This document shows, piece by piece, positions 7,416-55,810 of a stretch of DNA of 64,000 nucleotides. Each line of letters begins with the position of its first letter. Position 1 is the first letter of the stretch. The notes under the pieces are model-generated. The model ran no database searches. It saw only the letters and a program-made list of their open reading frames with translations, and was not told where the DNA came from. The translations under genes and the position numbers were made by a program. Source of the stretch: Candidatus Poribacteria bacterium (GTDB lineage: Bacteria > Poribacteria > WGA-4E > PCPOR2b); assembly GCA_965116925.1 (NCBI GenBank), contig OZ220744.1, positions 3,840,001-3,904,000 on the forward strand, in the 5' to 3' direction.

Positions 7416-8747
7416 TTATGACAAACACCAGACATTTCCGGTGAACGGTGGGAATAGACAGTCGAGCAGAACACCCGCTTCGTCCCGTCCATCACAATCG
7501 ACAAAATTGGTTTTCAATTCGTTGAACCGACGGCGACCACACAGGAGTTGCAAAAAAGTCAGATCTGGAAAGCGCGCATCGCCGTCCTCGACTGAATCGG
7601 GCGACCAGTTGGAGATGTCCGTTATTTTTCCGCCGTTAAATTTTAGTTGAATGCCGCTTCGGTAGTAATTCAGTTTCAGTTCGCCGTTATAGCCTTCTGC
7701 GACAGTTCCTACGAGATTCTTTTCTAAAGCAGGCTGGATATGCCGTAAAAAGGCGACTAGATCCGGCACACGGATGTACAATCCATACGGTTCATCCACG
7801 CGGATTTTATTTCCCAGCAAGGCGTGGTAGGCGGGATGTGTGCGTCCAAGTTCCAGGTTGATAGCCTTCAATTCTTGGTCTTTATGATTTCCGTATGCAG
7901 GCATTGCTTGCGCGATTTTCCACAATCCACCCAACATACCCGGCATCAGGTTAAGATAGCCTACGCCGGATTTGAGTTCGATCCGAACGATGTATAGTGC
8001 GTTGTCCTCTATCCACGGGTAGTATTGTACGTAGCCCAACCGATCACCCGCCGCCGTCTCAATGATTAGCCATTTCCAGTGTGCAAAATCGTTTTCTGAA
8101 CGTCCGCCGAACTCATAATTCCATTCCGCCTCTGACCGTAGGGTCGAGAAAGGTTGACGACAACTAGCACAGTCGTACAACTCTCGAATGAAGGTGTGGT
8201 CATCGTCTACCACGGAACGCAGATGATATTTTTCGGAGTCACCATCTTTCAGTTTCGGCAGATCGATTCCAGCTATGGCTCTTCCGCCGTCGATCTCCAT
8301 TGCCATCTCATACCCGAATTGGCGATAGTACCACGGGATGCCGGTGATGCCCTGCATCAGTTCACCCTTCACTGCACTCAAGGCGTGTATCACCTCAAAC
8401 TGTTTTCGCACCAAGCCGCGTCGACGGTATTCCGGTTCCGTGACGACCACTTCGGGTCGCCCAAACTTGAACGGGATCCCACGGTATGCCCACGTCTGGG
8501 AGATGAGACACATTGACGAGACGATTTTGTTCGTGCGGGTATCTTCCACTAATGTAAAATCGCTCGCTTTCACCGTTGGATGACGACCTGACATCAAACC
8601 GCGTATCCCAACTCCTACTTTCTCATCCTCGAAGATGCGGGCGTTAAATTCAGCGAGGGCGTCCACGTCTTCGGGACGTGCAAACCGCAATATTAGATTG
8701 TCGCCTAGATCAATAGGCATTTGAGAGAGAATTGAATTTTTAGACAT
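7416..8747 (-). CDS. Eis-like GNAT acetyltransferase with SCP2-like C-terminus
   Basis: 'VVTEPEYRRRGLVR', 'YYRQFGYE', C-terminal 'FLQLLCG'. Confidence 0.8.
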   Translation of the reverse strand: MSKNSILSQMPIDLGDNLILRFARPEDVDALAEFNARIFEDEKVGVGIRGLMSGRHPTVKASDFTLVEDTRTNKIVSSMCLISQTWAYRGIPFKFGRPEVVVTEPEYRRRGLVRKQFEVIHALSAVKGELMQGITGIPWYYRQFGYEMAMEIDGGRAIAGIDLPKLKDGDSEKYHLRSVVDDDHTFIRELYDCASCRQPFSTLRSEAEWNYEFGGRSENDFAHWKWLIIETAAGDRLGYVQYYPWIEDNALYIVRIELKSGVGYLNLMPGMLGGLWKIAQAMPAYGNHKDQELKAINLELGRTHPAYHALLGNKIRVDEPYGLYIRVPDLVAFLRHIQPALEKNLVGTVAEGYNGELKLNYYRSGIQLKFNGGKITDISNWSPDSVEDGDARFPDLTFLQLLCGRRRFNELKTNFVDCDGRDEAGVLLDCLFPPFTGNVWCLS

Positions 8748-8928
8748 TTACGCTTCCGTCCTCGAGCCATAGCGGCTTGAGATAGTTAATCAATAAATCG
8801 TGGTATCGTTTGATAGGTATTCTCATAAACTTATCAAAAATCACTTTAGGGGTGTATCCCAAGCATTTATGCTTGGGATACACCCATGCTTTAGCGTTAT
8901 TTTTTTTGTGTATTTTGTAGGTAAAACA

Positions 8929-8937
8929 TGATATAAT
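8929..8937 (+). promoter_or_regulatory. Extended -10 promoter (TGnTATAAT) for the tnpB transcript
   Basis: tgatataat directly before the structured leader. Confidence 0.55.
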
Positions 8938-8942
8938 TATGG

Positions 8943-9017
8943 TGGCTTTCGTGGGAAGGTCTCACACCACCGCACGGTGGTGCTTCCCACAGCCTTTGAG
9001 ACAGGATATGAAAGCCA
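8943..9017 (+). ncRNA. Putative structured 5' leader RNA with pseudoknot/kissing loop
   Basis: Perfect helices 8943-50/9010-17, 8951-58/8983-90, 8965-71/8976-82; bulge GTCTCA (8959-64) complementary to TGAGAC (8997-9002). Confidence 0.55.
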
Positions 9018-9030
9018 GAAAGCTAATTCC

Positions 9031-10167
9031 ATGAAAACCTACAAATTCAAACTGTATTCTAATCACGGCAATCGTGATCTGCATAAGACAATAGAAGGAC
9101 ACGCATCTGTCTGGAATCATTGCGTCGCGCTCCAGCGTCGGTATTATGCAATCTACGGCAAATATATCAGCAAGTTTAGACTCATCAATCATGTCTCTAA
9201 ACTGAAACGGTTGCCTCGGTTTGCCCATTGGAATCAGCTGCCGAGCCAATCGATTCAGGACGTAGCAGCACGTCTTGATAAAGCCTACAAAGCGATGTTT
9301 GAAGCGCGTGCTGCGGGTCGGAAATGGGGGCGTCCCCGTTTCAAACCGCGTCAGAAATATAAGTCGTTCACATTACTCCAAGCCGGCTGGAAACTTTTGC
9401 TGGGCAATCAGATCCGTATTGGTAAACGAATCTACCGATACTTCAAATCCCGCGAGATACTTGGCACTCCAAAACGCTGCACTATCAAGCGGGACGCCGT
9501 CGGTGATGTCTATATCTGTGTTTTAACGGACTATGAGGAACCTGACCTGAACCGAGCCATGACGGGTAAAATCGCAGGCTTCGATTTCGGTCTGAAACGG
9601 TATCTCACCGGTCATAACGGGCACGATATAGAATCACCACAGTTTTTCAAGCGGAGCATTAACGCCATCAAACGTGCGAGCCGTAAGCACAGCACCAAGC
9701 GCAAAGGTTCAAAGAACCGAGAACGTGCACGACTGAACCTCGCCCGTAAACACCGCACCATCGACCACCAGCGCAGCGACTTCCATTGGAAACTCGCACA
9801 CCATCTGACCGATGAATATGACGAGATACGACTTGAAGACTTGAACCTACAGGGCATGAAAGCGCTCTGGGGTCGCAAGGTCAGCGATCTCGGCTTTGCT
9901 GATTTCGTTCTGAAGCTGGTGTATATCGCTTCCAAAAAAGGTGTTAAAATCACGTTCATCTATCGGTGGTATCCTTCGAGTCGAACCTGTTCCGCTTGTG
10001 GTGCGGTCAATGATGCGTTGAACCTCCGTGATAGGACGTGGCAGTGTCCGAACTGCCACACGCAGTTGGATAGAGATCGCAATGCTGCGGTCAATATCTA
10101 TCGGGTTGGGGCATCAACCCATGCAGGAGAGGACGTAAGTCCCGGTTCGCCGGGCAATCCTTGTTGA
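9031..10167 (+). CDS. tnpB: RNA-guided endonuclease TnpB
   Basis: 'KTYKFKLY' N-terminus; RuvC-I 'GFDFG', RuvC-II 'LEDLNL', zinc finger CSAC...CPNC, RuvC-III 'DRDRNAAVNI'. Confidence 0.95.
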   Translation: MKTYKFKLYSNHGNRDLHKTIEGHASVWNHCVALQRRYYAIYGKYISKFRLINHVSKLKRLPRFAHWNQLPSQSIQDVAARLDKAYKAMFEARAAGRKWGRPRFKPRQKYKSFTLLQAGWKLLLGNQIRIGKRIYRYFKSREILGTPKRCTIKRDAVGDVYICVLTDYEEPDLNRAMTGKIAGFDFGLKRYLTGHNGHDIESPQFFKRSINAIKRASRKHSTKRKGSKNRERARLNLARKHRTIDHQRSDFHWKLAHHLTDEYDEIRLEDLNLQGMKALWGRKVSDLGFADFVLKLVYIASKKGVKITFIYRWYPSSRTCSACGAVNDALNLRDRTWQCPNCHTQLDRDRNAAVNIYRVGASTHAGEDVSPGSPGNPC

Positions 10168-10258
10168 TAGCACAATTCGATTCCTATCGGAAAGGGACTC
10201 CTAAGAATCCCAATCCTTTAGGTTTGGGAGTATGTCAAAATGAAAACCGTTCTCGCCA
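10100..10258 (+). ncRNA. TnpB omegaRNA (reRNA) scaffold plus 3' guide derived from the flank
   Basis: Overlaps the tnpB 3' end (gggttggggcatcaaccc; cccggttcgccggg hairpins) through the right end; guide would begin at 10239 (aatgaaaaccgttctcgcc). Confidence 0.65.
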
Positions 10259-10327: not shown

Positions 10328-10882
10328 CTATTGGCTTTGAATTTGATATTTTCTGACAAGTCTTTCTCCACTATGGATTGAGTTTTCTTTTATTCCATTT
10401 TCTTTAAGGGAAAACCCTAACTTTTCCAAAACCTTCATCGAAGCCATATTATTTTCAGTGGTACTTGCTTGAATTGTTGACAATTCCAAATATTCAAGCC
10501 CAAAATTAACAATGCTCTTGCAGGCTTCGGTTGCAAATCCCATGTTCCAGAATTCGGGGAGAATAGAGTAACCCAGTATCCCCAATTCTCCGTCTTTTCT
10601 CAAGGTGACAATCCCGATAGTTCGAGAGTCCTCCTTTTTCTTAATTAGCAAAGTCATACTGTTTTCGGTAGTTTCCTTCGAGACACAATGAGAAGTCGTC
10701 CGTTTCGCGTCCTCATATCCGAAAGGAAATGGCACTTTTCCTAGATGTTGTGAAACCCTCCAGTCGGAATATAGTTGATGAATGAAATCTACATCACTCA
10801 TTTCAATAATCTTAAAACAGAGGCGATCTGTCTCTACATTCGATAATTGTTCGGCAATATTATAACTTCTTAAAGTTTTCAT
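10328..10882 (-). CDS. RimJ/RimL-type GNAT N-acetyltransferase
   Basis: 'ETDRL', 'LGYSILPEFWNMGFATEA', 'NMASMKVLEKLGF'; visibly AT-richer than neighbours. Confidence 0.85.
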   Translation of the reverse strand: MKTLRSYNIAEQLSNVETDRLCFKIIEMSDVDFIHQLYSDWRVSQHLGKVPFPFGYEDAKRTTSHCVSKETTENSMTLLIKKKEDSRTIGIVTLRKDGELGILGYSILPEFWNMGFATEACKSIVNFGLEYLELSTIQASTTENNMASMKVLEKLGFSLKENGIKENSIHSGERLVRKYQIQSQ

Positions 10883-44555: not shown

Positions 44556-44641
44556 GCCGGGATGTTGGAATTGGTAGACAAGCTAGATTCAGGATCTAGT
44601 GGGCCCTTTCGCCCGTAGGGGTTCAAATCCCCTTCCCGGCA
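44556..44641 (+). tRNA. tRNA-Leu(CAG), long variable arm, CCA not encoded
   Basis: Acceptor gccggga/tcccggc+a; D-loop ggaattggtagac; anticodon arm ctaga-ttCAGga-tctag; T-loop gttcaaat. Confidence 0.95.
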
Positions 44642-55477: not shown

Positions 55478-55810
55478 AAAAAAGCCCTCCCGTTCCAACC
55501 CTCAGTTGTCTCGATTGAAAATTTCGAGAACAACTTGTGAGGACATACTTGGAGACGAGAAGGGCTTTCTCTAAAGTCCTTACCGTGGTACCACTCCAAT
55601 TCCCTTTTGTCAATCAAATACTGTGTGTAAAAGGGCACTCATTGGTATGCGTAACGTGCATGAATTCGGCTAACCCTACTCAGCGTTTTCAGGTTAGCAG
55701 CTCCAGGGCGACCTTCAGTCGGGGTTACTTGGGGAAATCTCTCAGCCGGTGGATTTCCCGCTCTGTCAAGACCGTTCGACTTACTCCTCCCCTTCATCGC
55801 TTTTGTGTAT
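55478..55810 (-). promoter_or_regulatory. T-box riboswitch (transcriptional), specifier GUC = Val
   Basis: Stem I GCGAUGA..AGUA..AGAG..GCUGAGAG..GAAG-GUC-GCCCU; T-box AAUUGGAG-UGGUACC-ACGG (55583-601); antiterminator partner CGUCUCCAA; terminator AAGCCC...GGGCUUUUUU. Confidence 0.85.

Follow-up and report, generated by a model that had tools for sequence, protein, structure and literature searches.

What occupies the stretch between the promoter and the start codon of a tnpB gene in Candidatus Poribacteria, and what might an RNA folded there do for the gene behind it? The question was raised by a preliminary description of one window (the whole stretch of DNA analyzed here, 64,000 nucleotides of contig OZ220744.1), made from the sequence alone, which reported a compact pseudoknotted RNA in the 5' leader of tnpB and proposed for it the role of an undescribed cis-regulatory RNA, a ribozyme or a TnpB-binding element. 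In the following, the element carrying this leader, its fold, its relatives and the readings that these allow are considered in turn.

The Carrier Element and Its tnpB Gene

The leader is carried by a tnpB-only (IS1341-type) element of the IS200/IS605 group at 8835–10238 (+), two near-identical copies of which (97.7 and 95.5%) occur elsewhere in the genome, both with a leader identical to that of the window. Features characteristic of IS1341-type elements were all found, namely tnpB without tnpA, subterminal hairpins, a TCAA right end and a short AT-rich motif at the left junction; five matches to Y1 transposases lie elsewhere in the source genome. The sequence TTAT at 8831–8834 (+) is common just 5' of the element across copies in the source genome and, by analogy with IS200/IS605 biology, is likely to be the target-adjacent motif or left cleavage site. 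The left-end subterminal hairpin, identified with a repeat finder, has 17-bp arms (8850–8885, no strand assigned), and in the near-identical copy near G000:C1 571500 (L081) it carries a small insertion. The tnpB gene (9031–10167, +) encodes a protein of 378 aa with the domains PF01385 and PF07282, in which the RuvC triad (D185/E269/D349) and the zinc finger are intact. The presumed omegaRNA region and right end cover 10100–10238 (+), the 5' limit being approximate, and include a hairpin at 10208–10229 and the terminal TCAA at 10235–10238. A sub-threshold Rfam 15 match to HgcC (10129–10251, E 0.39) falls on this 3' end and not on the leader. The closest named relatives of the element were Candidatus Poribacteria in 80 of 80 loci. 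While the left-end hairpin, the intact TnpB and the TCAA right end are shared with ordinary IS1341-type elements, the promoter-plus-leader module sets this element apart, not having been seen in 90 TnpB loci from outside Poribacteria.

A number of other features were recorded in the window. Genes for GNAT acetyltransferases flank the element on the opposite strand (7416–8747 and 10328–10882, both −), a T-box leader is located at 55548–55806 (−, 105 bits), and a tRNA with a long variable arm and a CAG anticodon is located at 44556–44641 (+). A single contig from an RNA library, possibly of DNA origin, spans both the left-end hairpin and the leader. An antisense promoter was considered and rejected, the number of minus-strand sites in the promoter scan being within chance (5 vs. 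2.8 ± 1.5 expected), as was a short upstream ORF that begins at 9008 and ends over the tnpB ATG, its frame not being kept across relatives.

Fold of the Leader

The leader follows an extended −10 promoter box (TGnTATAAT, 8929–8937, +) that was read from the sequence; the promoter scan also demands a −35 box, and this promoter is absent from its list. The predicted +1 is G8944. Helix P1 (8943–8950/9010–9017, +; from the sequence and the repeat finder) encloses a bulged hairpin at 8951–8990 (+), composed of P2 (8951–8958/8983–8990), a 6-nt bulge (8959–8964) and P3 (8965–8971/8976–8982) with a GCAC loop, and a small hairpin, P4, at 8993–9005 (+; stem 8993–8995/9003–9005, loop 8996–9002). The bulge, GTCTCA, is exactly complementary to P4 loop bases 8997–9002 (TGAGAC), which gives a 6-bp pseudoknot between bulge and loop. 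All four helices and the pseudoknot are therefore present as they had been drawn in the preliminary description. The folding z-score is −4.0, and none of 200 shuffles folded equally well.

It is at the 3' edge that the picture changes. The structure had been said to end 13 nt before the ATG, with no clear Shine-Dalgarno sequence outside it. The tnpB ATG at 9031 does lie 13 nt past 9017, but 9017 is not the end of the structure, as a second, tandem complement of the 5' strand comes after it. The 5' strand of P1 (8944–8950, +), starting at the predicted +1, can pair either with box 1 (9010–9016, +; register A), in which case the ribosome site would be open, or with box 2 (9018–9024, +; register B), in which case it would be shut and the 5' strand would act as an anti-Shine-Dalgarno sequence. 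A Shine-Dalgarno sequence is also present, albeit a weak one: AGAAAG at 9017–9022 (+) stands 8 nt ahead of the ATG and is complementary to the final bases of the 16S tail of the source genome, and its spacing before 3438 long ORFs peaks at 8, 9, and 10 nt (23, 30, and 28 cases) with three cases or fewer at each spacing from 15 to 29 nt. The tandem second partner, which had been missed, is what makes the leader two-state.

Conservation and Covariation of the Core

The window leader was aligned with 40 of 80 related loci, distinct and mostly free of large indels (alignment A1, 41 rows). With the pseudoknot included, 93.8% of cells pair, compared to 40–48% in slid controls, and changes on both sides are seen in 20 of 30 pairs, including all 6 pseudoknot pairs. 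The pseudoknot taken by itself pairs in 78% of cells in this alignment because MAFFT misregisters its 6- and 7-nt forms, and each copy was therefore parsed on its own; of 198 instances, 13 could not be parsed, and removal of duplicates left 173 distinct copies. By this approach, bulge–loop pairing of at least 6 bases was found in 132 of the 173 distinct copies, which represent 69 different bulge sequences, compared to a mean of 8.2% and a maximum of 13.9% when the bulge was set against the loop of another copy (300 permutations). In a second alignment, A2 (64 rows), which is model-fitted and biased towards its own structure, both partners have changed in 22 of the 24 nested pairs. A sequence-free descriptor, comprising only the bulged hairpin, a pseudoknot of at least 6 bp and two P1 partners, identified 21 distinct loci in the source genome, 20 of them family members, compared to a single locus in each of two genomes shuffled locally. 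Covariation among the relatives bears out both the helices and the GTCTCA/TGAGAC pairing.

Helix lengths are largely fixed across the 173 copies, P2 having 8 bp in 127 and P3 having 7 bp in 153, with P4 ranging from 3 to 5 bp in relatives. The only unpaired positions that are at least 90% conserved among 98 canonical copies are the first two bases of the P3 loop, the bulge positions being 38–83% conserved in the same 98 rows. In P2 and P3, G-U pairs outnumber A-C mismatches (145 vs. 10, with a parser that allows G-U freely), which fixes the strand. Substitutions in the pseudoknot amount to 8–13 changes per position on a tree of 40 tnpB sequences, compared to a mean of 9.3 at 60 fourfold sites; diversifying selection is not claimed, as leader exchange and the 6/7-nt register inflate such counts.

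The preliminary description had also held that this RNA is separate from the omegaRNA, and this is supported. The omegaRNA lies at the right end, over the 3' end of tnpB and into the flanking guide, whereas the leader lies at the 5' end, and pairing between the two was rejected as a candidate, the longest duplex (mean 6.85 bp in 110 elements) being no better than in a mid-gene control (6.73 bp). Structured RNAs linked to tnpB elements are already known from Rfam, among them IS605-orfB-I (RF03065), HgcC and omegaRNA-type motifs, the first two being listed in the available text of PMC11701678. The leader differs from all of these, in that the proposed search of Rfam 15 gave no match to it at the gathering score or at E values up to 10; related loci gave none in 11 at gathering and none in 4 at E values up to 1. 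Resemblances to hammerhead, HDV-like and SRP-Alu RNAs found no support in these searches. Full-text searches of the literature gave no description of such a leader. On comparative sequence evidence, the fold and its pseudoknot are real, and the leader represents a structured RNA family that is apparently uncatalogued.

Hairpins of ~31 nt are inserted in or between the tandem boxes of L006, L007, L014, L015, and L062 (about 1470–1500), and further inserted hairpins are found at this junction in G000 322173 and 4280383; the ~31-nt insert is probably a tiny mobile repeat.

Two Partners for the 5' Strand

In alignment A1, register A pairs in 94% of cells, with column 4 covarying, and register B in 97%. 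Among 142 leaders in which the −10 box is strong and the 5' strand measures 6–10 nt, two partners of at least six contiguous pairs were found in 105, one in 26 and none in 11. The 105 leaders with two partners span 25 different 5' 7-mers, and cross-laid controls gave two partners in a mean of 3% and a maximum of 9.7% (200 rounds). At one position of the 5' strand, G is accompanied by C in both boxes in 24 of 29 leaders and T by A in both in 20 of 25. Another Poribacteria family has a 5' strand of wholly different sequence and retains the tandem complements, and a genome outside the building of both motif models (G116, 29 matches) has new 5' strands with both boxes altered in step; in this genome the first of the two conserved P3 loop bases is also different. 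Leaders with fewer than two good boxes do exist (37 of 142), L033 and L040 being single-box examples.

The position of these pairings is also kept. The 5' strand extends 7–8 nt from the predicted +1 in 126 of 154 strong-box leaders, beginning at the seventh base after the −10 box, and in 134 of 142 leaders it starts with a purine (G or A); the −10 box was picked as the best upstream match, so that the start site is a prediction. In most leaders, box 2 stops 3–10 nt short of the ATG; it covers this codon in L130, L157, L164, L169, and L210, and several copies with such coverage belong to family f3. In L130 and L157 the boxes are 16–18 nt apart, and box 2 is still on the initiation region. In family f3, box 2 is weakly Shine-Dalgarno-like (anti-Shine-Dalgarno duplex about −1.5 to −6 kcal/mol). 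The motif GTGAT is hardly enriched before genes of the source genome, and in 43 of 173 copies, members of the conserved sister subfamily described below among them, no ORF of at least 80 aa adjoins the motif. Both pairings and their placement over the initiation region are established by comparison of the copies.

The two registers are close in energy. Over 119 rows, in which some registers are wrongly assigned, the median difference is 0, the stabler register being that of box 2 in 41, that of box 1 in 53 and neither in 25. In the window copy, with the pseudoknot left out, nearest-neighbor energies are −34.9 kcal/mol for the open and −32.1 kcal/mol for the shut state (pair probabilities of 0.92 and 0.02), so that the open state is better by 2.8 kcal/mol.

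Distribution and Relation to TnpB

Two motif models, R1 and R2, were used to follow the leader in other genomes, and part of the 80 related loci served to train them. With R2, 75 of these loci, training sequences included, show the motif ahead of tnpB, one of the 75 with a partial match. At E values up to 0.5 R2 gives 37 matches in the source genome, 26 of them before intact or truncated tnpB, 2 in miniature elements, 6 of the cassette type described below and 3 others. Of the 26 TnpB C-terminal domains encoded in this genome, 21 have the motif ahead of them, and three of the five TnpB copies without it also lack the stretch carrying the internal promoter. The motif was found in 73 of 101 Poribacteria genomes (R1 in 41 of 101, R2 in 32 of the remaining 60), and those bearing it all belong to families f1–f3 of one order. 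A further run gave matches in 5 of 35 genomes, 10 of the 35 being repeats of earlier negatives. The TnpB-bearing genomes G103, G104, G115, G117, and G118 gave no match.

Grouped at 50% identity, the 116 downstream ORFs with a length of 250 aa or more give 11 clusters. Ten are TnpB-like by BLAST, their representatives being 21–44% identical where they align, and the eleventh is unrelated. The subtype of the RNA tracks the host family and not the TnpB clade, which suggests, from these sequence relationships, that a promoter-plus-leader module may have been exchanged between elements.

Limited searches of viral, plasmid and metagenome sequences did not find the motif outside the phylum Poribacteria. 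R2 found it in 0 of 6 and 0 of 80 TnpB loci on viral contigs, and in four plasmid loci gave one AT-rich match of 13 bits (E 0.17); the descriptor found it in 0 of 90 TnpB loci from outside Poribacteria, compared to 55 of 80 in the positive control. No match for the leader was obtained by blastn against plasmids, and none of the matches to exact patterns (8 in metagenomes, 5 plus 0 in viral sequences) fits R2. Scans of viral contigs with other TnpB clades yielded no loci.

Not all copies are attached to tnpB. A sister form has a pyrimidine-rich 5' strand and Shine-Dalgarno-like tandem boxes with no start codon adjoining, and sits in a dispersed cassette of roughly 450–600 bp (G000:C1 319826, 322173, 338633, 2911452, 3117397, and 3232566; loci L300–L329). 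Most copies of the cassette have a sigma-54-type site, and part of the subfamily lies ~55 nt downstream of the predicted sigma-54 start. An exact pattern for the sister form matched 20 of 176 Poribacteria genomes, with 0 for the reversed control. Genes following the cassettes encode LRR, TPR, LDL-repeat, PAS/sigma-54 activator and STAS proteins as well as an unannotated cysteine-rich ORF of ~97 aa, and the 16 ORFs scanned downstream were mixed, with no common pathway seen. The sister form, found away from tnpB, shows that this gene is not the only setting of the fold.

Further copies without tnpB were observed. In miniature elements at G000:C1 4280383, 5589040, and 2585494, the promoter, the leader motif and the apparent right end are present and the coding part of tnpB is gone. 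The promoter and motif also occur without tnpB before a long unrelated ORF at G000:C1 5833002 (L108), and ~230 nt before an ORF of 228 aa with a hydrophobic N-terminus at G000:C1 5221835 (L092); these two are possibly exapted remnants of the element.

A Proposed Two-Register Gate and Its Alternatives

Given that both partners change together with the 5' strand, and that the second overlaps the Shine-Dalgarno sequence, we lean, at slightly better than even confidence, towards reading the leader as a two-register gate on translation, located at the extreme 5' terminus of the tnpB mRNA. P2, P3, and P4 together with the bulge–loop pseudoknot would form a fixed, shape-defined core that presents the first 7–8 bases of the transcript to the two tandem complementary boxes. 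Box 1 would be transcribed first, and while the 5' strand is paired there the Shine-Dalgarno sequence and start region would be free and TnpB would be made; a slip of 7–8 nt to box 2 would bury the ribosome site. Covering of that site by one of the partners probably makes the leader an on/off gate for synthesis of the RNA-guided nuclease. In either state the 5' end would be paired and shielded from RNase J, which the source genome encodes. With registers so close in energy, the small ribosomal subunit would pay only the difference between them and not the cost of the whole helix. The strong internal promoter would then be likely to supply nuclease at a low level or in pulses, and a host factor may bias the balance between the registers. 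The slip itself may be independent of any ligand. As the nearest-neighbor model favors the open state in the window copy, repression there would need tertiary contacts or a factor, and since registers balanced near 50:50 would repress translation only slightly, some trigger as yet unseen is plausible. The main fact that the gate leaves unexplained is the sister subfamily.

Control of this kind has a precedent within the same IS family, where, according to the available text of PMC4513863, a structured 5' UTR silences translation of IS200 tnpA and an antisense RNA, art200, is also present. Leader structure represses initiation there, as is proposed here, but the gene in the present case is tnpB, and the structure is a pseudoknotted three-way junction in which the 5' strand has two alternative partners.

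A bolder version of the gate is tentative and on balance doubtful, namely that the leader belongs to a novel class of RNA switches that respond to a signal, are defined by shape with almost no fixed sequence, and act by slippage of a 5' strand between tandem boxes, placing many TnpB clades under one host cue (a metabolite, an ion or a host protein) in sponge symbionts, and that the fold has been reused in the sigma-54-type cassette, upstream of host genes encoding eukaryote-like repeat proteins.

The alternative that survives best, although it is unlikely, is an ON riboswitch in the usual sense, whereby a metabolite or ion would bind the three-way junction or the bulge–loop pocket formed with box 1, lock that register and free the Shine-Dalgarno sequence, tying TnpB to a host signal. 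In its predicted pairings the leader has the layout of a translational riboswitch, with a structured 5' leader and mutually exclusive pairings of which one hides the ribosome site, and resembles an aptamer whose closing strand doubles as the anti-Shine-Dalgarno sequence. The constant lengths of P2 and P3 would suit such an aptamer, as would the presence of the fold before host genes. The contact between bulge and loop is a branched kissing loop, a motif described in the accessible text of PMC8457670 from 14 natural RNAs, including pistol, THF and ZTP; bulge–loop or loop–loop contacts occur in the THF, ZTP and c-di-GMP-II riboswitches, and bulge–loop kissing motifs make ligand pockets in three riboswitches. 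Like translational riboswitches, the leader has a kissing contact within a compact junction, placed ahead of a Shine-Dalgarno sequence that can be sequestered (PMC8457670, in part). Unlike them, it is nearly sequence-free and has no conserved pocket, its highly conserved unpaired bases being limited to the two of the P3 loop, one of which differs in G116, and its switch is a slip of 7–8 nt between tandem boxes. The topology of the purine riboswitch is a further case with which the kissing contact may be compared. The absence of any riboswitch match in Rfam also stands against a riboswitch. The leader is mostly found before tnpB, and the 16 host ORFs scanned were mixed, with no common pathway apparent among them.

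Rather less probable is a static stabilizer of the 5' end, in which the knot would only shield the mRNA, as precursor of the omegaRNA, from 5'-end-dependent decay, and the tandem boxes would stem from recurrent duplication by slippage. The location of the leader at the predicted +1, the presence of RNase J, the sister subfamily with no adjacent start codon and the existence of single-box leaders all fit this explanation. What it does not account for is that most differences between the boxes are compatible with wobble pairing, that each box changes with the 5' strand, and that box 2 is always on the initiation region, even where the boxes are widely separated as in L130 and L157.

The TnpB-binding element of the preliminary description, taken as an autoregulatory operator to which free TnpB would bind as to a mimic of omegaRNA, locking the closed register, is weakly disfavored by the data and appears improbable. 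The motif does precede most TnpB domains of the source genome, and TnpB handles its own mRNA according to the available part of PMC10278001. However, the same fold leads about 10 TnpB clusters whose members are as divergent as noted above, its subtype follows the host family and not the protein, it also occurs without tnpB, and the model detects no second copy at the 3' ends in 80 loci. Thus, of the proposal of an undescribed cis-regulatory RNA, the conserved, pseudoknotted and covarying RNA without an Rfam match is retained, and the ribozyme and TnpB-specific operator readings are unlikely.

IS200/IS605 elements move as single-stranded DNA of the top strand. The folding strand is this same strand, and a structure acting in TnpA-driven transposition as single-stranded DNA, and not as RNA, was therefore also weighed, all the more as motifs of RNA and of single-stranded DNA are hard to separate computationally, as noted in the main text of PMC5737381, which, in its available form, does not mention Poribacteria or IS605. 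We regard this explanation as very improbable, given that the fold lies at a fixed distance from the promoter and is tied to the start codon, that it sits ~60 nt inside the left-end hairpin, and that copies without the motif occur in three places.

A comparison with pistol ribozymes is instructive for the fold. As described in the accessible text of PMC6154101, in pistol a hairpin loop forms a 6-bp pseudoknot with the point where two helices join, and the leader shares this contact, probably with the same hairpin–pseudoknot–helix stack, whereas the order of hairpins in the leader is reversed and closed by P1. In pistol, a dinucleotide junction of conserved length, the cleavage site, links P3 and P2, and about 10 nucleotides are highly conserved, including purine 32, G40, and G42 (PMC6154101, in part). 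A self-cleaving ribozyme, such as a permuted pistol-like fold, is accordingly the least credible of the explanations despite this common topology, as the 3' strand of P3 runs straight into that of P2 with no dinucleotide opposite the bulge in 41 of 41 rows of A1, so that the G-U cleavage junction is absent, catalytic purines are not conserved, only the two loop bases reach 90% conservation, and no ribozyme matched in Rfam at E values up to 10.

Significance for Poribacteria and Their Mobile Elements

The natural variation of the leader offers an unusually clean case of three-way covariation between one strand and two partners, and an intramolecular bulge–loop kissing motif with dozens of natural sequence variants, which may be of use in RNA structure work and in the design of riboregulators. 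As its reach is apparently one order of Poribacteria, its general importance is capped accordingly.

For the elements themselves, what limits TnpB output in natural hosts has so far been a matter of suggestion, the available text of PMC10278001 demonstrating an internal inhibitory segment in tnpB mRNA and suggesting post-transcriptional control like that of tnpA; no such tnpB leader appears in that part of its account, nor was one found in the accessible part of PMC10691335. The leader described here belongs to the jumping genes of sponge-symbiont Poribacteria and, at the predicted start site, begins their tnpB mRNA. It provides a concrete candidate of 90 nt, ready for mutation, for the translational control of tnpB, and one that is common to about 10 nuclease clades.
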